In this document: piece after piece, positions 2,381 to 23,715 of the stretch | Layout of the letters: every line of letters begins with the position of its first letter | Position numbering within the stretch: position 1 is the stretch's first letter | From: Desulfonispora thiosulfatigenes DSM 11270 | GTDB lineage: Bacteria; Bacillota; Peptococcia; Peptococcales; Desulfonisporaceae | Reading direction: 5' to 3' | NCBI RefSeq assembly: GCF_900176035.1 | Contig: NZ_FWWT01000016.1 | Coordinates: forward strand, 56,409 to 80,408 | DNA length: 24,000 nt | Position numbers and translations under genes: made by a program | Notes under the pieces: generated by a model | Seen by the model: only the letters and a program-made list of their open reading frames with translations | Database searches by the model: none | Told to the model about the DNA's origin: nothing

Positions 2381-2917
2381 ATGAAAGAATTTATGGAAGA
2401 TGGAAATCTCTTTCCGGGAATACACTCTTATTCTTATGAAACATTTGAAGAGCAATTTGTTGCTGAATTTACAACTTCATCTACAAGAGGTGAAATTTAT
2501 AAAGGTCTTAAGGAATGGTTGCGATTGTTAATGGATGTCCTATCACCAAGGTATATTTGGTTAGATGGAAGTTATTTAACAACTAAAATAGATCCAAATG
2601 ATATTGATTTAGTTGTTTTTTATAGACCTGAGGATATCATGAAATTAGGTGAGGATGGAACAAGACAATTAGGAAATATTATAAACCAAATATCTTTAAA
2701 ATATGATTGCGATGCTTATTTCTGTTATACTTTAGATCATTTATCACCAGAAGATGTCGCAGCTAAATTTAAGGGTCAAGAAAAAATTATGCAAACATAT
2801 TGGATGGGTCAATTTGGCTTTGATCGTACTAGAAAACCGAAAGGTATCATAGAAATTAATAAAGAAGTAATAGAAAAGATGTTAGGAGGTGTTAAAAATG
2901 ATATTGCCTCTGAATAG
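2381..2917 (+). CDS. Minimal nucleotidyltransferase (Pol-beta fold, MNT-like) protein
   Basis: The motif WLDGSYLTTKIDPNDIDLVVFY is the GS...(D/N)DxD signature of minimal NTases. I place the start at ATG 2381 (MKEFMEDG...) rather than the TTG at 2300 used in the track. Confidence 0.6.
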   Translation: MKEFMEDGNLFPGIHSYSYETFEEQFVAEFTTSSTRGEIYKGLKEWLRLLMDVLSPRYIWLDGSYLTTKIDPNDIDLVVFYRPEDIMKLGEDGTRQLGNIINQISLKYDCDAYFCYTLDHLSPEDVAAKFKGQEKIMQTYWMGQFGFDRTRKPKGIIEINKEVIEKMLGGVKNDIASE

Positions 2918-3854
2918 GGCTGATGAAAAACTTAAAGAAACTGAAACATTTATTAAGGAGGTTGATGAAATACTTAACAAACTGGAATTGCCTGATTTTG
3001 CTAAGGAAATTCAATTAAACTCATTAAATAGAAGAGCGGAGAAGATGAAAAAAGAGTGTGAAAAGGTTCAACGTACAAGTGAATCTGAAGAGTTAATATT
3101 AACCTTACATCCTAAAGATTTACCATCAGGTCAAATATCTGTAAGGTCTTTAACAACTATTTTAGGTGGTTTTCAAGATCTTTCAGATAGTATAGCAAAT
3201 ACTTTATATAATCAACCTAGTGAAAAAGGAAAGATACCTCAAGATATTTTGGAATTTAATGAAATGATATTTAAAGAAGCAAGAACAGGATCATTTATAG
3301 CTGTATTAGATTTAAAGCATACTTCCAAAAACTTGATTGATGAACCTGTTCAGTCTCAAACTTTAGCAGAACTATTTAAGCTTCTATCTTCATCAGATGG
3401 TGAAGAATCCTTAAGTGAGTCAATTTCATTTTTAGGACCTCGTGCATTAAGAAAATACTCTGAATGGACGAAGTCAATAAAGGACTTAGATACAACAGTA
3501 GAGCTTGCGTGGACCTCTTCATATAAAGGATATTCAAAAGTAGCTATAAATCCTGAAAAGGCATGGAATATTTATAAAAGACTAAGTGACTTCTCGCAAT
3601 CATCAGAAGAAGAAATAATCTTAACCGGACGGTTAATGGGGGCAAATGTTAGGACGAAAACCTTTGAGATAAGTGATGAAAATGGGGAGAAAATCACAGG
3701 AAGAATAAGTAAAGATGCTCTTTCGGAAGTTGCATCATTTGTTCTTGATAAACCATGTAATGCTACATTGCTGAAGGTTATAACTAAAAGTAGTTCTAGA
3801 GAAAAGATTTCTTGGACTTTAAAATCTATAGTAGAAAACGAAGAAGAGATATAA
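2898..3854 (+). CDS. Hypothetical 318-aa protein, translationally coupled to the upstream nucleotidyltransferase
   Basis: AGGAGG at 2884-2889 lies 8 nt before ATG 2898. The gene overlaps the upstream one by 20 nt. The N-terminus is coiled-coil-like, and I recognise no motif. Confidence 0.6.
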   Translation: MILPLNRADEKLKETETFIKEVDEILNKLELPDFAKEIQLNSLNRRAEKMKKECEKVQRTSESEELILTLHPKDLPSGQISVRSLTTILGGFQDLSDSIANTLYNQPSEKGKIPQDILEFNEMIFKEARTGSFIAVLDLKHTSKNLIDEPVQSQTLAELFKLLSSSDGEESLSESISFLGPRALRKYSEWTKSIKDLDTTVELAWTSSYKGYSKVAINPEKAWNIYKRLSDFSQSSEEEIILTGRLMGANVRTKTFEISDENGEKITGRISKDALSEVASFVLDKPCNATLLKVITKSSSREKISWTLKSIVENEEEI

Positions 3855-3904: not shown

Positions 3905-3936
3905 AGCATAGCTAATAACCCCAGTAACGTCGTTTG

Positions 3937-3959
3937 CCGTGCCAGGCACTTAACTTATT
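3937..3959 (+). repeat. Cassette-boundary repeat copy 3
   Basis: The sequence ccgtgccaggcacttaacttatt matches the consensus exactly. Confidence 0.9.
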
Positions 3960-5226: not shown

Positions 5227-5354
5227 AAACTCGTTTTAGCTTGTGCTTAGTTAAGGCAGGAAGAATTATTAGCAAACTGGACTTTAGCATTGAATAGTGA
5301 ACTTCCTTTTAAAATAGACCCATTAAAATAGGGAGGTTGAATTTATGTATTTAG

Positions 5355-5382
5355 CCGTGCTAGGTACTTAACTTATTAACCT
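5355..5382 (+). repeat. Cassette-boundary repeat copy 4
   Basis: The sequence ccgtgctaggtacttaacttattaacct shares the 'aacct' extension with copies 1 and 6. Confidence 0.85.
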
Positions 5383-5659: not shown

Positions 5660-6102
5660 GTAACTGTCAAAGATTTTCCTCATATGAAGGGGTTATATAA
5701 AACAGGATACTTCAAAGACCCAATAATTTTATATGACTATCAAAAAACTAGATCAAGCTCCTATAATAGATGAATTTATAGCCTATGTAGATAAAGAGAT
5801 CTTGGGTGCAGTACCCAAAAGTCCATTAGGACAAGCCCTAGATTATACTAAAAAACTTTTGCCAAACTTTAAAACATTTTTAGAAGATGGAGCTTTAGAA
5901 ATAGATAATAATGCATCTGAAAGAGCTATAAAACCATTTGTAGTGGGCCGCAAAAGCCAATGACCCAATAGTAGAAAAATATTTAATAAATAGGCTCCAT
6001 TTTAAAACCCCAGTAGAAAGCAAATATTAACTATGCTTACTACTGGGATTATTGTATCATTTGATATTTGTTAATACTATACGTCAATTCGTTGACGCTT
6101 AC
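5660..6102 (+). mobile_element. Internally deleted IS66-family remnant (~440 bp) that keeps both ends
   Basis: The left end gtaactgtcaaagattttcc (5660) is identical to the sequence at 13347. The right end ...cgtcaattcgttgacgcttac (to 6102) reads gtaagcgtcaacgaattgacg on the other strand. Both ends start GTAA, as IS66 inverted repeats do. ORF 5733-5963 (..LPKSPLGQALDYTKKLLPNFKTFLEDGALEIDNNASERAIKPFVVGRK) is the conserved C-terminus of the IS66 TnpC transposase. The region between the left end and 'ttttcctcatatgaag' is deleted relative to 13347-13500. Confidence 0.75.
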
Positions 6103-6167
6103 AGAAAAACTAGTAAAATTACATCTTATATAATTTATTCGTAAGTGTTACAATTTTTCTTGACCAG

Positions 6168-6219
6168 GAAATAAAGACAAAAGAGTTGGTATAAATACCA
6201 ACTCTTTTGTCTTTATTTC
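6168..6219. repeat. Perfect 24-bp inverted repeat with a 4-nt loop
   Basis: The sequence is gaaataaagacaaaagagttggta-taaa-taccaactcttttgtctttatttc. It lies between the IS66 right end and the next ORF. Confidence 0.85.
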
Positions 6220-6351
6220 TTAGGGAAAAAGAATCAATGGGTCGAAAAAATTCGAGGTTCCATTGAGTATTTCCCTTTATTTATTATTTAGTATATACTA
6301 TATATTAAGGTTATATTCATTTTTTGTCAAGAGAAAAATAAGGGGATAATA

Positions 6352-7551
6352 ATGAAAAGAAAATTCAATGATAACAGGATTAAAAATAATATAAATCTAA
6401 ATGAAGCGGGAAAATTTTTTATTCAGCGAGTTTTGGAAATTTTAGATCCAAAAACTATACCCGCCTATTCTATTAAATTTCTAAATTCACATATAGCCTT
6501 ACAAGAATTATTAGATGTATGTGATAAAACAATGAAAGAAATATATAAACATGATCACCTAAACCCTGTAATAAAAGAAGTCAGGACTATCATTCTTAAA
6601 GATAGCCTATTAGATAAATATGCTACTGCATACAAAAAAATAATTATTAGTAGCTTGGATATAACAAACAAGAATAAAAACTTACTCTATAATAGACTTA
6701 AGTATCATATTAAGCATGCTTTAAATCATCTTAAAACCAAATACCTAGAATGGATAATATATTCCAGAAAGTTAATATTACTGTGAAGAAAGGTTCATAT
6801 ATTATTGATAATTACCATAAAGTTTTCGATTTGAATCGAAGATTAAAAAGTGACGAGTATTATATTATTGAAAAAGCATGCTCTTACGATTATTTTTCGG
6901 CAATAGATAACTCATGGGAAAACCTGGTCAAAAAATTTGATGTACTTTCTTTTTATGGTTATAAAATTCCTGAATTAATTATGGCTCCATTTTCCTTTGT
7001 ACCAAATGTAAATTTAGTCATTCACAATAGAAATGTTGCCTTATTTGATGAAAAACCTCAAAATGAAGCTCCTGCAGATTTATTGGATCAATTTATAAAA
7101 ATCGATAGACCTGATAGCATACCTATTATAAAAATAAAAAGGACCTTTGAATTTATTCGTATGAGTAAAGATTCTTTATCAAATGAAACAAAATTTTTAA
7201 ATCAGTGGGTTGCATTAGAGTCATTTGTTAAATCTAATCATTACAGTAGTATTATTGTAAATATCTGCGGTGTTGTTCCTAATGTCATTTTTACAAGAAA
7301 TATTTTTAGATTACTAAGGGGAAAAAAACGAGAATATTTCCCTTTTTTATAACCATCTTAATCATTACTTGAACAACCTATTATCAGAAATAATTTTTAA
7401 ACTCAATAACAATAATTACGAAACAATTGATGAAATTTTCTCTGCTATGAAGGATAATTATAAAGCTACAATTGATGTTCTGGGTTCTATTAAACCAAAA
7501 GATAATTTAAATAGTTATATAAAACTTCTACTTAATGGAGCCTTGTTCTAA
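6352..7551 (+). pseudogene. Unknown ~400-aa gene broken into three frames (6352-6786, 6750-7352, 7369-7551)
   Basis: Three consecutive + strand ORFs in frames 1/3/1 overlap or abut, with a single good RBS (AAGGGG) before 6352. I recognise no family motif with confidence. Confidence 0.45.
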
Positions 7552-7564
7552 ATGAATGTGATGA

Positions 7565-7586
7565 CGGTGCCAGTCACTTAATTTAC
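7565..7586 (+). repeat. Cassette-boundary repeat copy 5, diverged
   Basis: The sequence cggtgccagtcacttaatttac starts 14 nt after the stop at 7551. Confidence 0.7.
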
Positions 7587-7869
7587 TTTGCTGAGACTGA
7601 CTTTGTCGACAATCCAGTATCACTTTATGAGGCGACTAAAAGGTCAAACGAACTCATAGCTCATACCTATAGCCACCCGTATAAAATCCCAGCTACGACC
7701 TTTATTAGCGCCTTAGAAAAAGCCCTAACTAAAGCACTAGGAAAAACAGTAGAATTTGAAAAAAATATACGAACCCGTTAAACCAGGCGACGTCCCCAAG
7801 GCGTATGCCTCTACCGATTTACTACAAGAGTGCGTAGACTTTAAACCCCAGACCTCGATTGAAGAAGCG
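7587..7869 (+). pseudogene. Internal fragments of a second NAD-dependent epimerase gene (deletion plus frameshift)
   Basis: FAETDFVDNPVSLYEATKRSNELIAHTYSHPYKIPATT|FISALEKALTKALGKTVEFEK reads on, after a frameshift in the A-run near 7760, to KIYEPVKPGDVPKAYASTDLLQECVDFKPQTSIEE. The catalytic YxxxK region (SLYEATK) is present. The fragment begins directly at the end of repeat copy 5. Homology stops after TSIEE. Confidence 0.65.
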
Positions 7870-8189
7870 AAGATCCCAATTCATCATTTTGCATTCAAAG
7901 AGATTATGCATTTCTATGCAAAAAATTTAAAGCAAATAATGAGTTCCGGGCTTTTCTCTTTTGAAAAAGTGACTATAACCTGTCAACTTTGAAAGAAAAG
8001 GTCACAGGGGCAGGGCATTTATACCATTTAGAAGACATGTATGTTTAGAATTTCATCGGTAAAAGATATGATGTTGGGAATATATATATAACAAAAGAAC
8101 TATAAAACCCTACAGCTGTAGTTAATGTGGTGAGAAAGGTTATCGAGAGTTATGAAAAGTTTTTATTGAGTTAAATAATTGGAGGAAAA

Positions 8190-10604
8190 ATGGAGAGTAT
8201 TAAAATATTGATAAATAAATTTATCGTTGCAATAGTAATGTCTTTAGCATTATTTTATACAATTGATATTGTCTTCGATGTATATATTATAATTATAGCA
8301 ATTACTTGGATTGTAATTTTTTTAAACTTTAGCATATCAAAGAATGTAGAGTTTTTTGGTACTATAATAATTGTATATTTAGGTAATTTAATAACATATA
8401 TTTTTATTAAAAATAAGATCTATAATGGGCTTTCAAAAGAAAATATCGAGGTTTTAGTTATTATAACATGTTTAATATTTCTTCTAACTATATCAAGAAT
8501 CATTTTTATAGTAAATCCATTTCGTAAAAAACAAATAATAAAACAACCCCAAATAATGATGAAAAGAAAGAAAGATCTGGAAGGACTTTTATACTATATA
8601 GATGTATTTGATATAATTGCATTAAATGGTAGATGGGGAACGGGCAAATCTTTTTTAATTAAAGAATTAAAAAAGGAAGTAAATAATAAATATGAAATTA
8701 TTGAAATTGATGTCTTATCATGTAATCTTAACGAGCTTCAGTTAATTTTAATAAAAGAAATTGAAGAGTTAATGTACAAAAATAGAATTATATCGAAGTA
8801 CTCAAATAAATTAAAAAGATTTTTAGGAAAAGAGTCTGTTATTTCAAGGGTACAGGATCTAATTTTTAGTAAAAACCAGTCTTATTCTGAAACTATAAAA
8901 GGTTTGCAGAAAGAGTTAGAAAAGCTAGGTAAAAAAATAATAATTATTTATGAAGACATAGATAGAATAACTGATATCGATATTATTAAAAATATATTCG
9001 GAATATCTGAAAAGATTTCTAACGAAAAGATAAAGATAGTTTATCAATATCATGAAGATAATTTGAAGGAAATTGGCTTTACAGCTGATTATTTAGAAAA
9101 ATATATGCCTTTTAAGATAAATTTAACTGAAATTAATTTCTTTGAAATATTAAGCTTTAAACTGAATGAAAAAAACTATGATAAAAGTATAATAGAAATC
9201 AAAGATTTTAATTTTTTAAAAGAAGATTTCCAGGGGTTCCGATATAATGTTTTAGTGAATGTCTTTAATATTAATAAGGAAATAAATTTAGTGGTAAGGA
9301 ATATTAGTATCAGAAAGGTTGAGAACTTTTTATCTGAATTGGTTAAAATATTAACTAAAAATCAATATAAAGAGCATAAAGAAACAGTAATAGCTTTCTT
9401 TTTCTTAAAACATTTTATTCCAACGATATATGAAAAACTAAATATTGAAAAAGGACTGGTAGAGACAATTAAATTCGATTTAAACTCAAACTTTTATACC
9501 ATTACAGAATTAATATCCTTGTTTAATTCAGGTAAGCTTGGTAGAGGAGATATAATCAATTTATTTAAAAATGAAGAAAATCAGATTGGTTATGGTGTTT
9601 TGAAGCTTTTTGATTATAAAGTTCTTCAAGTTATTAATGAAGAAAACTATATAGAACGATTAAAGTTAATATATGAAGAACCAATTAGAAACCTAAAAGA
9701 TAGAGATAGTAATGAAAAAAAAGATAGATTAATTTGGAGCCTATTAGCACAAGGTAAATCTCAATTTACTGACTATGAATATGTAGGTAGGAAATTTATT
9801 GAAGAAGTACTAAATAGGCCTGACACTGAAATACTGAAGGCATATGAACAATTTAACAACAGTTTATTTTATAAGAATGATCAAGAAACTGACAATAGTA
9901 CTATATTTAAAATGGGGGTTTCTTCATTTATAGAGTTATTTAAATCATTTAGAATTTTAGATGTACCTGATTATCACCAAGTGGGTTTAGTGAATATTTA
10001 TTTTAAAGTAGAAAAGATAAAAGATATAGATGATGAGTTAATTCAAACCCTTAATTATTGTAATTTAGGAACAAAAAAGGGATATATTGGTATTTTAAAT
10101 AATTTTAATAAACTGAATGTTATAGGAAATTTAAATGATGAAGAATGCTTTGCTAATTTTCTGAAAATGTATATTAGAGCTTTATCAAGTCTTGGTTATA
10201 TAAATACTGGAGGGTTTTCTAACATTTTTTTTTATGAAAAGGTGATAGAATATAAAAAATATGTAATGAAAGATCTTAAAGGAATCATAGAAAAAATACA
10301 TAAGGTAAAACACAAATTAAGTTTATTTTTAGAGTTAAAAGAATTGGATGATGAATTTAATACAATTATAATATTCATAGAAAAATTAATAGAAATAATA
10401 GATTGTAAATCTAAAGTAATTAAAAAAGAAAGAGGTCTTATTACAAGTAATATTTATAGTAGATATCAAAATCAAGAGGAATTCGACAGACTGGAAAGGG
10501 CTTCTAATGAGGGAAATAATTTAAAAGATGAAATAAAAAATAGTTATTTAAAAGGGAAAATAACAGCGTATGAAATTGAGAAGTTAATAGATAAATTGGA
10601 TTAA
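8190..10604 (+). CDS. KAP-family P-loop NTPase with four N-terminal transmembrane helices
   Basis: GGAGG lies 5 nt before the ATG. The first ~110 aa contain four hydrophobic helices. Walker A is LNGRWGTGKSFL (8628-8651), the GxWGxGKS form typical of KAP NTPases. Walker B is IIIIYEDIDR. The C-terminal region is long, lysine- and asparagine-rich and helical. Confidence 0.7.
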   Translation: MESIKILINKFIVAIVMSLALFYTIDIVFDVYIIIIAITWIVIFLNFSISKNVEFFGTIIIVYLGNLITYIFIKNKIYNGLSKENIEVLVIITCLIFLLTISRIIFIVNPFRKKQIIKQPQIMMKRKKDLEGLLYYIDVFDIIALNGRWGTGKSFLIKELKKEVNNKYEIIEIDVLSCNLNELQLILIKEIEELMYKNRIISKYSNKLKRFLGKESVISRVQDLIFSKNQSYSETIKGLQKELEKLGKKIIIIYEDIDRITDIDIIKNIFGISEKISNEKIKIVYQYHEDNLKEIGFTADYLEKYMPFKINLTEINFFEILSFKLNEKNYDKSIIEIKDFNFLKEDFQGFRYNVLVNVFNINKEINLVVRNISIRKVENFLSELVKILTKNQYKEHKETVIAFFFLKHFIPTIYEKLNIEKGLVETIKFDLNSNFYTITELISLFNSGKLGRGDIINLFKNEENQIGYGVLKLFDYKVLQVINEENYIERLKLIYEEPIRNLKDRDSNEKKDRLIWSLLAQGKSQFTDYEYVGRKFIEEVLNRPDTEILKAYEQFNNSLFYKNDQETDNSTIFKMGVSSFIELFKSFRILDVPDYHQVGLVNIYFKVEKIKDIDDELIQTLNYCNLGTKKGYIGILNNFNKLNVIGNLNDEECFANFLKMYIRALSSLGYINTGGFSNIFFYEKVIEYKKYVMKDLKGIIEKIHKVKHKLSLFLELKELDDEFNTIIIFIEKLIEIIDCKSKVIKKERGLITSNIYSRYQNQEEFDRLERASNEGNNLKDEIKNSYLKGKITAYEIEKLIDKLD

Positions 10605-10660
10605 CGGTCTTTTTATTTATAAAAATATTTGTTGTAAATCAATGTGTGGAGGTGTAACCA

Positions 10661-13321
10661 ATGACACCGAAGAAATCATCAAAGAAAAAGAAAAAGGTAG
10701 TTAAACCAGTATATAGATCTCTATCCGATTTAGAACGGTCGCGTACAGGGGGACAGGTTGCACTTTCTGGTTTTACATATCAATTTTTATATTCTTGTTA
10801 CCTGATGCTATCTGAAAAAGATGAGAGTGTGAGTTTTACCCTTGAGGGGCTTGAAGATATTGACCGATACAAATGTGATGTTACATCAAATACGATAACT
10901 CATATTCAACTGAAATATTCTACACAAAGGCAAGATGCTAGTTTCCTAAAGGATGTACTGAAAAATTATTTGGAAGTTTATTTGCTGGATAATACTCACG
11001 ATTTCAAACTTGTCTATGATTTTGATATTGCTAAAGGAAATCTAAATAAACTTGTCAATAACAATCTTGATGAGGCATCAAAAAAATATTGGGTCGGAAT
11101 AATTGAAAAGATAATGGAGGAAAATACTCAGTGGAATTGGAGTGGTTTCTCAAGTAATGCTTTCTTAGGTAAAATAACTTTTGAGAAACGAGTTAAAGAT
11201 GATCTTACATTGGAAATCGAGAAGCTCCTAATTGAGAGACATGATATTACAACAGATAATATTAGGTTGTATGTAAATGGTATAAAGGTTTGTTGTCTTG
11301 AAAAAATGGAATATCGAGAGAGTATAAATAGAAAAGAACTTGATGCAATAATACAGAATATTAATGACGACATTAGTAAGGGTATTGAGAACCCTGCTCA
11401 TGGATGGATTAAAAAGGTTGACTTTAGTGTTCTAGAGGCTACAGATGAGAAGAGCTATTTTGAAGGTAAGAAAGCATCGCCACAGGATATTGCTTTGAAG
11501 TTACCGGTTAGACGTATTGATACTGAAAAAGAAGTTGAAGACTCCATAAATAGTAATAGAGTGACAGTGATTAAGGCTTCAAGTGGACAGGGGAAAACTA
11601 CAATTGCCCTTCAAGTTGCATTGAACCTATCTAATGAGTATAACATTTATCAGTTGACATGGTGCAATGATGCTAAGGAACTCAATAATATTATTAAATA
11701 CTTTAAGTCAAGAGTTAAATTAGGAGAAAAACCACTCATTATTATTGATAATTTAGATTCACAGTTGAGCGAGTGGAATAGATTAGCTCAGTTACTCCAA
11801 GAAGAAATAACATATAACTATAAATTACTACTCACAAGTAGAGAAGATGATTGGTATAGATATTCAGGTAATTTGAGTAATGTTAAATCACTTAGAACAG
11901 TAGAGATATCACTAAATAACCAAGAGGCTGAAGATATATTTTTTCAGTTAAAGAAGAGGAATTTGTTGCATGATACTGTAAGTGATTGGAGGGGTTCGTG
12001 GAAAAGAATAGAAGAAAAAAGACTTCTGATTGAGTATGTATATCTACTTACTCATGGTGAGATGATATCAGAAAGAATAAGTCAGCAGATATCAACAATT
12101 AGTACTTCAGAGAATGGTAGGATTAAGTGTGAGATATTAAGAATTGTTTGTTTTGCAGATGTTTGTGGAATTAGGCTTCCAGTTATGAAGATAATCCATA
12201 ATTTGAAGGAACCTACTTCGAGTGATTATGGAGAAATACTTAAAAGTGTTGAAAATGAATTTTTAATTAGTATAGATGAAAATGAAAAGTTTGTTGAAGG
12301 ACTTCATCCTGTCCGTTCAATGCATATAGTTAAAAGATTGCATGAGTTTTATTCCATAAATAATACCGCTATAAATGTGATTAAACTAACGGATTTAACA
12401 TACTTGTCTAAACTATTTTCTAATTTGCCTAAATGGATTACTAATAGAGAAGAGATTTATGATGATATTGTGAAACTATGTGGATTGGAAAGGGAGAGAC
12501 TTAATTTATTAATAATGACGTGTGAATATTATATTGAGCACAAACCCAGTAAATATTTCAACAAATATTCTATTAGGTCATGGTATAGCAAAAAGAAAGA
12601 GCAACTTATTATTGATTCAAGCACAGCATTAAACCAGCTACAGGAAAATTATGATGTGTCTTTTCCAGTAGATTATTATTCGGTAGGTATTCTCAAGCAC
12701 TATCCAATAATAGCAAATAATCTAAATGTTGAAGATCCTGATGAATTAACAAAATTTTTATACTTATGTTCCTCTATTACTTCTATCGACTACGATTATC
12801 TTGTCATAGCTGTCAAATCAGGGATAAATCAAGTAATGCCAAATGGATTAAAGGTACCATACAATTTCTTGAAAGATTTAAGAGTTGCTATTGATGACGG
12901 GAATTGGGAAGTGATGGAAAAGTTATCACCTCCATTTCCGTATGAAATCTCTACAGGGTTCTTAAATTGCTTTGAAGAAAAAATGAATTTATTAGAATTA
13001 GCAACCTCACCATATGAGGGTATAGACAGTGTATTTGAATTACTTTGGTCTTATTCAATATCAAGAGACATCTTGGTAGATAAGATTGATTCAGAGTACT
13101 TGTCTGGTATATTGATGGAGTATGAAAAGAAAATCACGAATTTGCTTAAAGTATTTGAGGGCAAGATCCCTGCAAAAGAATATGCTGTTATAAAACAAGT
13201 TTGTTATGACGTTTATAATGGTGGATTTTTTGGTGATGCTGAGTTAAACAACTATAATAATAGCTTAATCTCATTAGCCAGTAACTTACAGGAAAAGGGG
13301 TCGTTTATAAAGATTACTTAA
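10661..13321 (+). CDS. Fusion protein: N-terminal PD-(D/E)xK nuclease (Cap4/DUF4297-like), central NACHT-like P-loop NTPase, C-terminal helical region
   Basis: GGAGG lies 8 nt before the ATG, 56 nt after the KAP stop. The N-terminus GGQVALSGFTYQFLYSCYLML ... LEGLEDIDRY ... THIQLKYS fits the DUF4297/Cap4 endonuclease pattern (G..yQ ... E.(E/D)D.D ... Q.K). Walker A is KASSGQGKTT (~11578-11604). Walker B is PLIIIDNLDS (~11735-11760), resembling the NACHT hhhhDGhDE form. About 500 aa of uncharacterised helical C-terminus follow. Confidence 0.65.
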   Translation: MTPKKSSKKKKKVVKPVYRSLSDLERSRTGGQVALSGFTYQFLYSCYLMLSEKDESVSFTLEGLEDIDRYKCDVTSNTITHIQLKYSTQRQDASFLKDVLKNYLEVYLLDNTHDFKLVYDFDIAKGNLNKLVNNNLDEASKKYWVGIIEKIMEENTQWNWSGFSSNAFLGKITFEKRVKDDLTLEIEKLLIERHDITTDNIRLYVNGIKVCCLEKMEYRESINRKELDAIIQNINDDISKGIENPAHGWIKKVDFSVLEATDEKSYFEGKKASPQDIALKLPVRRIDTEKEVEDSINSNRVTVIKASSGQGKTTIALQVALNLSNEYNIYQLTWCNDAKELNNIIKYFKSRVKLGEKPLIIIDNLDSQLSEWNRLAQLLQEEITYNYKLLLTSREDDWYRYSGNLSNVKSLRTVEISLNNQEAEDIFFQLKKRNLLHDTVSDWRGSWKRIEEKRLLIEYVYLLTHGEMISERISQQISTISTSENGRIKCEILRIVCFADVCGIRLPVMKIIHNLKEPTSSDYGEILKSVENEFLISIDENEKFVEGLHPVRSMHIVKRLHEFYSINNTAINVIKLTDLTYLSKLFSNLPKWITNREEIYDDIVKLCGLERERLNLLIMTCEYYIEHKPSKYFNKYSIRSWYSKKKEQLIIDSSTALNQLQENYDVSFPVDYYSVGILKHYPIIANNLNVEDPDELTKFLYLCSSITSIDYDYLVIAVKSGINQVMPNGLKVPYNFLKDLRVAIDDGNWEVMEKLSPPFPYEISTGFLNCFEEKMNLLELATSPYEGIDSVFELLWSYSISRDILVDKIDSEYLSGILMEYEKKITNLLKVFEGKIPAKEYAVIKQVCYDVYNGGFFGDAELNNYNNSLISLASNLQEKGSFIKIT

Positions 13322-13346: not shown

Positions 13347-13545
13347 GTAACTGTCAAAGATTTTCCGCTTAGAATCCATTAAAATCCCCCAGCTAAAATT
13401 ACAGAAAACAACGTAATTAGGAGGCTCTTTTAATGGCAAAGGAATCTGGTGAAATTAATTGGGACGTTATAATGCAAAAATTTTCCTCATATGAAGAGGT
13501 TATAGCTGATTTTTGCAGGGAAAATAAAATCAGGGCCTACCAAAA
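13347..13545 (+). mobile_element. IS66-family left-end remnant with a truncated tnpA (orfA) start
   Basis: gtaactgtcaaagattttcc starts 26 nt after the stop at 13321. RBS TAGGAGG precedes ATG 13433, giving MAKESGEINWDVIMQKFSSYEEVIADFCRENKIRAYQ..., the W....SG/S...FC.e..I pattern of IS66 TnpA. Homology is lost before repeat copy 6. The right boundary is approximate. Confidence 0.65.
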
Positions 13546-13924: not shown

Positions 13925-14865
13925 CTGGAACAAAGTACAGGGCAAGTTTTAAAGAAAAAATTAAGCTTTGATGAAATGATTGAGCACTTGGTTAAGAAAA
14001 ATGTTAAGTTTGATTTAATTTCAAAAGAAGAAGCTAAGAAAATTCTTCAGACTTCAAATTATTTTTATAAAATTACTGCTTATAGAAAAAACTTTGAAAA
14101 AAACAAATCTAATAAGTATGTTAACTTGGATTTTAAATTGCTGCAAGATTTAGCTACTATTGACATGCGCCTTCGATATTTAGTCTTGCACATGTGTCTA
14201 GACATTGAGCATGTAGTTAAAACATGGATTCTTACAGATATTACGAATGATTCAGCTGAAGATGGTTACAGTATAGTAACTGACTATTTAGAGCATGATC
14301 ATAGTTCTATTGAGGATTACATGAAAGCCTTAAACAAAAAGAGTCATTACAATTATGGTTTGTATAGAAGACATCATATTAATACACCTATTTGGGTTTT
14401 ATTTGAAGTTATGACCTTTGGTGCTTTTGTAAAATTTGTGGAGTTTTATTATTTCCGAAAAAACAAGTTAAACAGATACAAGGAACTTCAACAAATATTA
14501 AGATATGTAAAAAACATTAGAAATACAGCTGCTCACAATAGCCCTATTTTAATGGATATTACAAAAGGTCAGCAGATAGATCCTAAAAAAATAGTGAAAC
14601 CTATAACTGAATTCACAAAACAAATTTAAGGGCTATCACCATTATCCAGAAAAAAAGATTATCTAATCGAAAAATACATGATTTGACTGTACTTATTTAT
14701 GTTCATTATAAGTATATTAATAGTGAAGGTATTAAAGCTGCACGTTATGAAGAATTCAGGAAATTATTGGAGCGCACAAAACGATTAAAAAATGCATATA
14801 ATAATCAAGAATCCTTAATAGCTGTATATAAATATTTCAAGAAATTGATTGACTTCATAAGTTAA
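13925..14865 (+). pseudogene. Abi_2 (AbiD/AbiF-like) abortive-infection gene, apparently frameshifted near 14611-14629
   Basis: ORF 13976-14629 carries YVKNIRNTAAHNSPIL, the RNxxAH (Rx4H, HEPN-like) Abi_2 motif. The frame is open upstream to 13898. AAGGAGGG (13911-13918) is ideally spaced for the CTG at 13925, and ATG 13976 has no RBS. After the stop at 14629, frame 1 is open from 14611 and continues as ..RLSNRKIHDLTVLIYVHYKYINSEGIKAARYEEFRKLLER.. to 14865. Confidence 0.6.
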
Positions 14866-14978: not shown

Positions 14979-15000
14979 AATGGGAAATATAGTAACTTAA

Positions 15001-15023
15001 CCGTGCCAGCCACCTAACTTATT
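15001..15023 (+). repeat. Cassette-boundary repeat copy 7
   Basis: The sequence is ccgtgccagccacctaacttatt. Confidence 0.8.
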
Positions 15024-15531: not shown

Positions 15532-16244
15532 GAAAAGCATTATAGCTAAACTTTGGGTTTCAATTGTAATGTTAATTATAATAGTTCTGCTCTTTTTTTG
15601 AATCAGAAGAATTTAAAAGCGCTTTTACGGGTAAAATAATAACAAATAGAGGTAATTATCATCACTTCAATGCACCGATGTTATCAGTTGCAATTCCAAT
15701 ATATAATGGAGAAGAAATAAATCAAGCATTAATGCTATTTAAACCAGTTGCTCCTATCACAGATATAATCAACTCTATGAGAAAACTAATATCTTATGCT
15801 GCTTTTGCTGTAATAATCTTAGCAAGTATCGTTAGTTTTTTCTTATCCAGGACACTATCAAGACCATTGATACAAATGAATAAAATTGCTACTGAAATGG
15901 CTAAAGTTAACTTTGGGAATAAAATAGCGGTTAAAAGTAACGATGAGGTTGGCTTATTAGGTACCAGTTTAAATAATATGTCAGAACGACTTAAATTTAA
16001 TATTAATGAGCTTTCTCATGAAAAAGCAAAATTAGAAAATGTATTAGATAGTATGTCTGATGGAGTAATTACTTTAGATGCACATGGAAATATAATCCTA
16101 GTAAATCCTCCGGCAAAAAGGTTTTTATCAAAATATGGACAAGATTTAAGTTTTGGACAAAACTTTTTTAATTGTATAAACCTAGTTGAGTTTAAGAATT
16201 TATTTGAAGAGGTTAATCAAAAAAGAAAAAGGCAGTACCTTTAG
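15524..16244 (+). pseudogene. Sensor histidine kinase remnant (TM, partial sensor, HAMP and PAS); frameshifted, with the kinase core missing
   Basis: ATG 15524 overlaps the regulator stop (ATGA coupling), giving MIKKSIIAKLWVSIVMLIIIVLLFF*. ORF 15678-16244 has a second TM segment, a HAMP-like LSRPLIQMNKIATEMAKVNFGNKIAVKSNDEVGLLGTSLNNMSERL and a PAS-like LENVLDSMSDGVITLDAHGNIILVNPPAKRFL. There are no H-box or ATPase motifs. It ends 27 nt before repeat copy 8. Confidence 0.65.
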
Positions 16245-17271: not shown

Positions 17272-17290
17272 AACAGTTCAAAGCAGGAAG

Positions 17291-17313
17291 CCGTGCCTGG
17301 CGCATAACTTATA
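17291..17313 (+). repeat. Cassette-boundary repeat copy 9
   Basis: The sequence ccgtgcctggcgcataacttata starts 20 nt after the ldh stop. Confidence 0.75.
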
Positions 17314-19448: not shown

Positions 19449-19586
19449 AGATAAAGACGCAGGCAAAGGCAAAAATAACTTATAAAAGGCTACCAGCTTA
19501 AACCTCGTTATTTTTGTTTTAGAGCCTGTGAAATAATTTTCCAGGCTCAATATTTTCTCTAAATTAGCGTATATTTTAATCCCCAG

Positions 19587-19625: not shown

Positions 19626-20035
19626 TTATTTGCACTAGGGTTACGAATCTCTGATCCTTAAAGGCTAGATAGTGAAGGGCAAATAAACCAAAAGAGATGA
19701 AGAAATGAAAAAACTATCCATTGATATATAAACATTTAGTAGTGCCTAAAACTAGAAAATGGGGCGAGTAAAAGTATTAACTAGGCCCAAGAATTCCCTT
19801 AAATGCCGAGGGCTTTTAAACTAGTTATTATATGAAGGATTAAACCAGTATTGGTGCCAACTACCCTTTAACTAAAAAGGAAATGCGTAATAATGGATTA
19901 AAAAATAAGATAAAGGCAATGATAAATATAAAGAGATTAATTTATAATCTATAAGGGATTTCTTTATAATCTATGCTAATATCACGGGGTTAAATATTCG
20001 TGGTATTAAATATTTGTGTTATTGGGGGGATAAAG

Positions 20036-20734
20036 ATGGGATTTATAATGTTTTTTCCCTTATTATTTTTTGCACTGCTATTATTGCCTAAGTATTTTAC
20101 ATACCAAAAATCAAGCTATAAAACCGAGACTGGAAATAGCTTTTTTAAGACCTTATTTGACAAAGGTAACTACGGCGAATTTTTAACATTTTCATATCTT
20201 GAAAAGCTAAAAGGTTACCATAAAATCATGGCTAACTTATACATACCAAAAGAAGATGGAACCACTACGGAAGTTGATGTACTAATGATCACTGAGAAGG
20301 GTATATTTGTTTTTGAATCCAAGAATTATAGTGGGTGGATATTTGGTGATGAAAAGAATAAGACCTGGACTCAATCTCTCCCAAATAAATCTAAAAATCG
20401 ATTTTTCAACCCAATATGGCAAAATGCTGGGCATATTAGCGCAGTCAAAAAAACCTTAGACTCTTGTGATAAATGTTTGTTTAGATCTTATATTATATTT
20501 AGCGAGCGTTGTACTTTAAAAAAAATTGCAGTTAATTCTCAAGACATTAAAGTGATTAAGCGAAATGAGTTACTTAAAACTATTAAAAAAGATTTAGAGC
20601 ATTTACAGCATATTCTCTCAAAAGAAGAAGTGGACAATCTCTATCTAAAATTAAAATCTTATGCTTGCGTTGATGATGCTGTTAAAAGTGCACATATAGA
20701 AAATATAGAAAATCTCCACTTAGAACGTCGATAA
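20036..20734 (+). CDS. Membrane-anchored NERD (nuclease-related domain) protein
   Basis: The N-terminal TM helix is MGFIMFFPLLFFALLLLP. GEFLTFSYLEKL.GYHKIMANLYIP....TTEVDVLMITEKGIFVFESKNYSGWIFG is the NERD E.D...ExK core. The start is placed at ATG 20036, after a GGGGGGA RBS. Confidence 0.7.
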   Translation: MGFIMFFPLLFFALLLLPKYFTYQKSSYKTETGNSFFKTLFDKGNYGEFLTFSYLEKLKGYHKIMANLYIPKEDGTTTEVDVLMITEKGIFVFESKNYSGWIFGDEKNKTWTQSLPNKSKNRFFNPIWQNAGHISAVKKTLDSCDKCLFRSYIIFSERCTLKKIAVNSQDIKVIKRNELLKTIKKDLEHLQHILSKEEVDNLYLKLKSYACVDDAVKSAHIENIENLHLERR

Positions 20735-21376: not shown

Positions 21377-21415
21377 GAGTCTGTGAAATAATTTCACAGG
21401 CTCTTAATTTTTAAA
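21377..21415 (+). terminator. Intrinsic terminator; the stem sequence recurs at 19521-19549
   Basis: The sequence gagtctgtgaaat-a-atttcacaggctc is followed by ttaattttt. The left arm is tandemly duplicated (agagcctgtgaa at 21362-21373). Confidence 0.6.
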
Positions 21416-23640: not shown

Positions 23641-23691
23641 TTAATAGTAGATGGTTATTATGGTTTTGTCAATAGTAAATTAACTTTGGTA

Positions 23692-23715
23692 ACTGCGCCA
23701 GGCATTTAACCTATT
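23692..23715 (+). repeat. Cassette-boundary repeat copy 10, variant
   Basis: In actgcgccaggcatttaacctatt the 3' part matches the 'ttaacctattc' extension of copies 1 and 6. Confidence 0.65.

Follow-up and report, generated by a model that had tools for sequence, protein, structure and literature searches.

In the genome of Desulfonispora thiosulfatigenes DSM 11270, a gene for a membrane-anchored KAP-type P-loop NTPase (gene 1) is followed on the same strand by a gene for a protein with a Cap4-type nuclease domain and a STAND NTPase domain (gene 2). Both genes were analyzed within a stretch of 24,000 nucleotides (nt) of contig NZ_FWWT01000016.1 (positions 56,409 to 80,408), referred to here as the window; unless a locus is named, coordinates are those of the window. 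A first-pass annotation had proposed that the two genes form a two-gene anti-phage system. They are instead likely to be two independent single-gene anti-phage candidates that do not function as a pair, with gene 2 represented by a sensor-deleted allele. In the best reading of the locus, both genes are candidates of known kinds that adjoin each other in a defense island, with an IS66 remnant on either side. The genes are considered independent because relatives of both never co-occurred in the loci surveyed, their closest relatives are unpaired, the neighbors of both families are variable, and the two genes differ in GC content.

8190-10604, + strand: gene 1, 804 amino acids (aa), protein P0121, membrane-anchored KAP-type P-loop NTPase
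10661-13321, + strand: gene 2, 886 aa, protein P0001, Cap4-nuclease/nSTAND5 NTPase/sensor protein
8181-8185, + strand: gene 1 ribosome-binding site GGAGG, 5 nt 5' of the ATG at 8190, read from the sequence
10648-10652, + strand: gene 2 ribosome-binding site GGAGG, 9 nt 5' of the ATG, read from the sequence

The gene layout was as first described, with two same-strand open reading frames (ORFs) separated by a 56-nt spacer and each preceded by a strong ribosome-binding site; coordinates and GGAGG sites were confirmed. All of the motifs quoted in the first-pass annotation were also found in the genes to which it had assigned them, and they are invariant across the aligned relatives (33 for gene 1 and 25 for gene 2). 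Both proteins are 100% identical to the NCBI entries of strain DSM 11270 (P0121 and P0001), and the entry for P0121 is labeled as a KAP family P-loop domain-containing protein. The spacer contains no terminator-like hairpin, so the two genes may be co-transcribed. Scanning this AT-rich sequence for promoters gave no useful information (37 sites compared to 40.5 expected), and a search of the window against Rfam gave no match.

Lack of co-occurrence of the two gene families

Co-occurrence of the two families had been set beforehand as the test of the two-gene proposal. The loci of the gene 1 family (n = 28) consisted of 23 loci with one genome per species, 2 viral contigs, and 3 looked-up contigs, and those of the gene 2 family (n = 92) consisted of 80 metagenome loci, 4 viral contigs, and 8 looked-up loci; at least 2.5 kb of upstream sequence was available for 63 of the first 89 gene 2 loci. 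With tblastn and family hidden Markov models (HMMs), a gene 2 relative was detected in 0 of the 28 gene 1 loci and a gene 1 relative in 0 of the 92 gene 2 loci. The proposal of a KAP and nuclease-STAND system therefore failed this test, which saves experimental effort on the pair.

The closest relatives of gene 2 are all unpaired. P0002 (90% identical) is flanked by genes for a Ser/Thr kinase and a serine recombinase (locus L116, 6235-13474), P0003 (89% identical) has a SPOUT methyltransferase gene before it and a SLATT-reverse transcriptase cluster after it, and P0004 (88% identical) follows a HAD hydrolase gene. Similarly, unrelated genes follow the nearest KAP relatives, P0122, P0123, and P0130 (59%, 57%, and 49% identical to gene 1). 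When neighbors of the gene 1 family were clustered, no family was present in more than 2 of 21 KAP loci. The genes directly 3' of KAP relatives are housekeeping or other defense genes, none of which encodes a STAND protein; an aminotransferase, an OLD-like ATPase, and a HEPN protein are among the products encoded downstream. The gene 2 family has recurrent neighbors, namely genes for a RumA-type rRNA methyltransferase (27 loci), a tyrosine recombinase (23 loci), IstB, and PcrA (loci L029-L113), which look like insertion-site context. Neither gene family has a conserved partner.

The composition of the two genes also differs, with a GC content of 23.1% in gene 1 versus 31.9% in gene 2, and the homology of gene 2 to its relatives starts inside the gene, at nt 21, rather than in the spacer. 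Thus, it is highly improbable that the membrane KAP NTPase and the nuclease-STAND protein are a dedicated two-gene anti-phage system, for example one in which a membrane sensor signals to a cytosolic nuclease. The shared strand, the 56-nt distance, the strong ribosome-binding sites, the lack of an intervening terminator, and the defense-island context would all be expected of such a system, but the families were not found together even among the closest relatives, each is stand-alone in architecture with variable neighbors, and a gap of about 9 points in GC content and the intragenic start of homology separate the two genes.

Two other possible links between the families were considered and rejected. 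A broader pairing, in which a KAP gene is followed by any STAND gene, was discarded when genes for fucose pyrophosphorylase, a histidine kinase, and a germination protease were found downstream instead. A connection through the PADLOC model mad8, which is the best match of gene 2 and was also matched in 5 KAP neighbors, was traced to generic P-loop matches to McrB and PDC-M37B/DolB-type ATPases.

The occurrence of the RumA-type methyltransferase and tyrosine recombinase genes beside members of the gene 2 family suggests an integration hotspot in gut Clostridia. In locus L001 (12124-16115), a gene 2 relative adjoins a SLATT-reverse transcriptase-Schlafen-helicase cluster.

A nuclease-STAND protein with an internal deletion

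10718-11425, + strand: gene 2 Cap4-type PD-(D/E)xK nuclease domain, aa ~20-255, from the AlphaFold2 (AF2) model, Foldseek, and Pfam matches of relatives
10844-10864, + strand: gene 2 candidate catalytic motif E62-D68, residues invariant
10907-10915, + strand: gene 2 candidate catalytic motif Q83-x-K85, residues invariant
11453-11926, + strand: gene 2 STAND NTPase domain, aa 265-422, from Pfam
11579-11602, + strand: gene 2 Walker A, SSGQGKTT, invariant in 25 family members
11738-11761, + strand: gene 2 Walker B, IIIDNLDS, invariant in 25 family members
12473-12479, + strand: gene 2 deletion junction with the 7-nt microhomology AAACTAT, from blastn against L001
12480-13318, + strand: gene 2 retained C-terminal sensor lobe, aa 607-886, with 74-79% identity to the final ~280 aa of full-length relatives

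The first-pass annotation had assigned a Cap4/DUF4297-style nuclease to the N terminus of gene 2 from its motifs (GFTYQ at aa 37-41, LEGLEDID at aa 61-68, and IQLK at aa 82-85, ahead of SSGQGKTT at aa 307-314 and IIIDNLDS at aa 360-367), and had singled out a non-nuclease fold of this region as a result that would count against it. The fold came out as Cap4-type. The AF2 model of the first 255 residues (predicted local distance difference test score [pLDDT], 81; predicted template-modeling score, 0.78) has an alpha-beta-beta-beta-alpha-beta core, for which Foldseek found matches in the Protein Data Bank (PDB) to Cap4 (6vm5; E = 8e-9) and to the N-terminal effector of Avs3 (8dgc; E = 6e-7), as well as to HamA of Hachiman (8zue), HerA-DUF4297, and LmuA. 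Consistent with this fold, Pfam Cap4_nuclease (PF14130) is matched by 13 of the 25 family members, residues E62, E65, D66, D68, Q83, and K85 are invariant in all 25, and NCBIfam gave a weak match to DUF4297_antiphage at aa 34-107.

The NTPase domain had been called NACHT-like. It is a STAND NTPase, matching PF25199 (nSTAND_NTPase5) at 60.4 bits (cutoff, 34) and PF20720 (nSTAND3) at 37.7 bits (cutoff, 27.2), but the match to the NACHT model itself was below threshold. A STAND NTPase domain was matched in 25 of 25 relatives. With a Cap4 effector and an nSTAND5 domain both present, gene 2 has the predicted effector-NTPase-sensor layout of Avs STAND proteins. Its family is large and centered in Firmicutes, with many members from the human gut; a search with the N-terminal domain as the query yielded mostly fragments from within this family, without increasing its diversity.

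The protein encoded in the window is substantially shorter than its relatives (886 aa versus ~1,315 aa in all relatives listed), and the best local alignment covers ~67% of the query. In BLASTP alignments, aa 1-606 of gene 2 correspond to residues 1-604 of a relative, and aa 605-886 correspond to residues ~1041-1312. When gene 2 was compared by blastn with the 89%-identical gene of L001, one homology block extended to gene nt 1819 and the next began at nt 1813, an overlap of 7 nt, and the offset changed by 1,314 nt, or 438 codons, in frame. The approximately 500 aa of helical sequence noted earlier after the NTPase domain are present, yet they are the remainder of a longer region: the part C-terminal to the NTPase is ~900 aa in relatives and ~465 aa in gene 2 after the 438-codon deletion. 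The deleted segment was not relocated, as no copy was found elsewhere in the window.

Contraction of repeat units, which might have explained why a deletion was tolerated, was ruled out as the cause, since internal repeats were not detected in the C-terminal region (best hhalign probability, 9%). Because such repeats are lacking, the alignments point to an illegitimate, microhomology-mediated deletion. In the 25-member alignment of relatives, the lost segment includes 67 positions with conservation of at least 90%, and it is under purifying selection in relatives (ratio of nonsynonymous to synonymous substitution rates [dN/dS], 0.18-0.26). The nuclease and NTPase motifs of the window copy are intact. 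Most likely, judging from the sequence missing from its sensor region, this protein would be unable to recognize its trigger.

A different possibility is that the shortened gene 2 is a functional variant under selection, either responding to another trigger through the shorter C-terminal region or serving another STAND protein as a regulator or decoy. The reading frame is preserved across the deletion, the ORF with its nuclease and NTPase motifs is intact, and the window lineage has no rise in dN/dS. Furthermore, the NTPase and Cap4 domains of SeAvs7 are kept autoinhibited by the C-terminal lobe (PMC13581612), and a C-terminal lobe is still present in gene 2. Nevertheless, a functional short form seems unlikely. 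No similar short form was found among the ~119 relatives listed or in the 92 loci, the lost segment comprised 67 near-invariant positions and is under purifying selection in relatives, and a junction at a 7-nt microhomology without repeat units is indicative of an accidental event rather than modular contraction. There is even less to recommend the idea that the sensor-deleted gene 2 has been retained, as its intact ORF and unchanged dN/dS would allow, and works in this lineage with the co-transcribed KAP NTPase, for example as a nuclease activated via the KAP protein instead of the lost sensor. If such a newly assembled composite system did exist, it would have been caught at birth.

Several observations weigh against two independent genes, one of them a sensor-deleted allele. 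The match of gene 1 to the KAP model is modest, at 26.6 bits over part of the model. The metagenome loci of the gene 2 family are partly redundant, many of them being from human-gut relatives at ~54% identity. Neither relaxed selection nor excess divergence was found in the retained parts of gene 2 in the window lineage: dN/dS was 0.12-0.15 for the N-terminal part (0.12-0.19 among full-length relatives) and 0.22-0.39 for the C-terminal part (0.21-0.31 among full-length relatives). With dN/dS not raised, the explanation is a recent deletion or continued constraint on the short allele, and the intact ORF is likewise compatible with continued use of that allele or with a recent deletion. Finally, the short spacer, the lack of a terminator, and the strong ribosome-binding sites make a lineage-specific interaction of the two genes conceivable.

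A family of membrane-anchored KAP NTPases

8193-8531, + strand: gene 1 four-helix membrane region at the N terminus, aa 2-114, from hydropathy and the AF2 model
8628-8651, + strand: gene 1 Walker A, GRWGTGKS, aa 147-154; W149, G150, G152, and K153 invariant in 33 relatives
8937-8966, + strand: gene 1 Walker B, IIIIYEDIDR, aa 250-259; E255, D256, D258, and R259 invariant in 33 relatives
9180-10601, + strand: gene 1 helical C-terminal domain, aa ~331-804, with conservation across the entire family

Gene 1 had been described as a KAP-type NTPase, and its match to Pfam KAP_NTPase (PF07693) is above the gathering cutoff (26.6 bits; cutoff, 20; E = 4e-6; model positions 22-196 of 293). A PF07693 match is precomputed for most of its relatives. 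No match was found in NCBIfam, and the search against PADLOC returned just a 27-residue match to PifA around Walker A, with no other family at an E value of ≤1.

Hydropathy across 33 relatives and the AF2 model agree on the four N-terminal transmembrane helices that had been predicted. Kyte-Doolittle peaks are located at aa 27-45, 55-73, and 90-108, in addition to a weaker first segment, and this pattern is kept in the 33 relatives. In the AF2 model (pLDDT, 85.6), N-terminal helices at residues 2-24, 29-46, 53-77, and 85-114 are followed by a P-loop alpha/beta core with strands at residues 142-146, 168-174, 249-255, 281-287, and 308-311, the third of which carries Walker B, and by an all-helical C-terminal domain. 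All four membrane helices precede Walker A, and no hydrophobic segment was found by hydropathy or in the AF2 model between Walker A and Walker B (aa 154-250). KAP NTPases with two or four helices inserted into the domain were reportedly described by Aravind et al. in 2004, and the helix placement in gene 1 does not fit that description. It does fit KAP proteins described as having four transmembrane helices outside the P-loop domain (PMC13001434).

No sequence match was found in Pfam, NCBIfam, or the PDB for the C-terminal domain of gene 1 (~470 aa), and family-profile searches of the PDB gave P-loop-level matches only for both gene families, those of the gene 2 family being to helicases. The nearest solved folds to gene 1 were RdrA of RADAR (E = 2e-6), Avs5, ORC/Cdc6, and Avs4, all with low template-modeling scores. 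These folds place the modeled protein among AAA+/STAND-like ATPases, without a close solved relative.

When 1.84 billion representatives were searched with a profile, 381 clusters (50% identity) were assigned to the gene 1 family at an E value of ≤1e-30. The architecture of the family is fixed, because nearly all of the clusters are ~800 aa in length and aligned from end to end. Its members are mostly from Clostridia and Bacilli, and the models matched in their neighborhoods were AbiLi, MADS, AriA, type I restriction-modification, AbiO, Nhi, GajB, and DRT.

Comparison with known defense systems

Gene 2 resembles Avs3 (PDB 8dgc) and SeAvs7 (PMC13581612) in having an N-terminal effector, a central STAND NTPase, and a large C-terminal region. 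The N termini of SeAvs3 and gene 2 both have the Cap4 fold (Foldseek E = 6e-7), and genes for Avs proteins, like gene 2, are single genes in defense islands or mobile contexts. Avs3 and Avs7 use the same Cap4 effector and logic, and at least 90 defense-associated STAND families have been recognized, several of which have Cap4 effectors (PMC13581612). In contrast, gene 2 has no sequence match to the solved Avs proteins (Avs2-5) beyond the P-loop, and its NTPase belongs to Pfam nSTAND5/nSTAND3. In searches against the PADLOC 2023 models, the window protein and the full-length P0002 alike had only a weak, generic match to mad8. Unlike Avs3 and Avs7, gene 2 has a C-terminal region without detectable repeats, and the copy in the window lacks 438 aa of it. 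The nuclease fold and the E/D...QxK pattern are also common to Cap4 of CBASS, HamA of Hachiman, LmuA of Lamassu, and DUF4297-HerA, but those systems place the nuclease under the control of a SAVED domain, a helicase, an SMC-like ATPase, or HerA, and in gene 2 control would fall to a fused STAND NTPase.

For gene 1, the most relevant comparison is with EF_KAP and three KAP proteins from gut metagenomes, which are anti-phage KAP P-loop NTPases (PMC13552941). Single-gene KAP NTPases with transmembrane helices and a C-terminal region of unassigned function were found in 2026 to protect Enterococcus faecalis from phages in a Walker-B-dependent manner (PMC13552941). The likeness between this class and gene 1 is one of architecture and context, in that both are single genes for a KAP NTPase with transmembrane helices and a long, domainless C terminus and occur in defense contexts. 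By description, EF_KAP has two transmembrane helices, one of them inside the NTPase domain, whereas gene 1 has four, all of them N-terminal. PifA of the F plasmid differs from gene 1 in having no transmembrane helices, and the PADLOC match to it is limited to the 27 residues around Walker A.

Tmn had been cited in the first-pass annotation as a transmembrane KAP NTPase. However, Tmn is not a KAP protein but a YobI-family NTPase, with two transmembrane helices inserted into the P-loop domain between Walker A and Walker B (PMC13001434). Gene 1 is not a member of the Tmn/YobI family, as it has no hydrophobic segment at aa 154-250 and its Pfam match is to KAP. Tmn and gene 1 are both single-gene, membrane-anchored P-loop NTPases with a helical C terminus, and a similar block of infection at the membrane may be possible.

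By analogy with PifA, the E. faecalis KAP proteins, and, more loosely, Tmn, a cytosolic C-terminal domain of gene 1 might detect an infection cue, and NTP binding or hydrolysis would then drive a membrane change that stops phage replication. If full-length members of the gene 2 family act as Avs3 and Avs7 do, their C-terminal region would bind a phage protein, the NTPase would oligomerize with ATP, and the assembled Cap4 domains would cut DNA. The copy of gene 2 in the window has lost 438 codons from the middle of the C-terminal region through the microhomology-mediated, in-frame deletion.

It is quite unlikely that one or both genes have functions outside defense, such as KAP membrane signaling or regulation by a STAND protein. 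STAND clades do switch between defense and nondefense roles (PMC13581612), and KAP NTPases include signaling proteins, but Cap4-fold nuclease effectors are typical of immune proteins, and both families are found in variable, defense-rich or mobile contexts.

As independent anti-phage candidates, both families are of modest interest. The gene 1 family, with its coherent arrangement over ~800 aa of four transmembrane helices, a KAP NTPase, and a helical C terminus, would broaden the class of anti-phage KAP proteins that was validated in 2026. The Cap4-nSTAND5 family (~1,315 aa; Firmicutes, human gut) is a candidate for a trigger screen such as that used for Avs7-21. The natural in-frame sensor deletion of the gene 2 copy in the window could serve as a ready-made control allele.

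The surrounding defense island

2300-2917 and 2889-3854, + strand: overlapping ORFs for DUF6932 (205 aa) and a 321-aa protein, matching PDC-M63A/B
5660-5963, + strand: IS66-family remnant, consisting of the terminal repeat GTAACTGTCAAAGATTTTCC and then a tnpC (DDE_Tnp_IS66) fragment at 5733-5963
13347-13545, + strand: IS66-family remnant, in which the 5' end of tnpA (from 13435) accompanies the same terminal repeat
13976-14629: Abi_2/AbiD (E = 7e-23)
20000-20734: NERD
1804-1831, 2175-2202, 3932-3959, 5350-5377, 7560-7587, 14996-15023, 17286-17313, and 23688-23715, + strand: copies of the repeat CCGTGCCAGGCACTTAACTTATT

The presence of PDC-M63, AbiD, and NERD genes around the gene pair agrees with the defense-island context that had been noted. 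The suggestion that the pair lies in a repeat-bounded cassette was also upheld, as the IS66-type end GTAACTGTCAAAGATTTTCC occurs at 5660 and at 13347 in the same orientation. The remnant at 13347 starts 26 nt past the stop codon of gene 2, and the peptide MAKESGEINWDVIMQKFSSYEEV within it resembles TnpA of an intact IS66 element in locus L004. The copy at 5660 looks internally deleted, its end being fused to the tnpC fragment. In Clostridium beijerinckii, a KAP relative is located ~1.3 kb from the intact IS66 element (L004, 11745-14121).

The two upstream ORFs, whose PADLOC match is to the candidate two-gene system PDC-M63A/B (E = 1.6e-31 and 3e-23), are another defense candidate within the same island. 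Closer to gene 1, positions 6352-7352 contain two overlapping AT-rich ORFs of 144 and 200 aa (25-27% GC), the second of which (6750-7352) shows a weak match to ApeA in the C-terminal portion of the model (E = 1.4e-6; positions 329-415 of 601). These ORFs probably derive from an abortive-infection gene of HEPN type that has decayed into fragments. Downstream, a 188-aa ORF at 15678-16244, which has HAMP and PAS domains only and adjoins genes for a lactate/malate dehydrogenase and an amidohydrolase, looks like the remnant of a truncated sensor kinase.

The dispersed intergenic repeat CCGTGCCAGGCACTTAACTTATT (~24 nt; palindromic core, GTGCC-A-GGCAC) is present in 8 copies, all on the + strand; 5 copies are within 3 mismatches compared with 0 expected by chance, and no Rfam family was matched. 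It may represent a repetitive extragenic palindromic (REP)-like element or a site bound by a protein in this genome. Just 3' of the IS66 fragment, at 6153-6234, an inverted repeat (40 nt; loop, 2 nt; 85% complementarity) could form a strong hairpin or terminator. A hairpin-forming repeat of 31-35 nt (GAGCCTGTGAAATAATTT..CAGGCTC) at 19518-19556 and 21377-21411 flanks the NERD gene and a 162-aa ORF, which suggests a small cassette or paired terminators.

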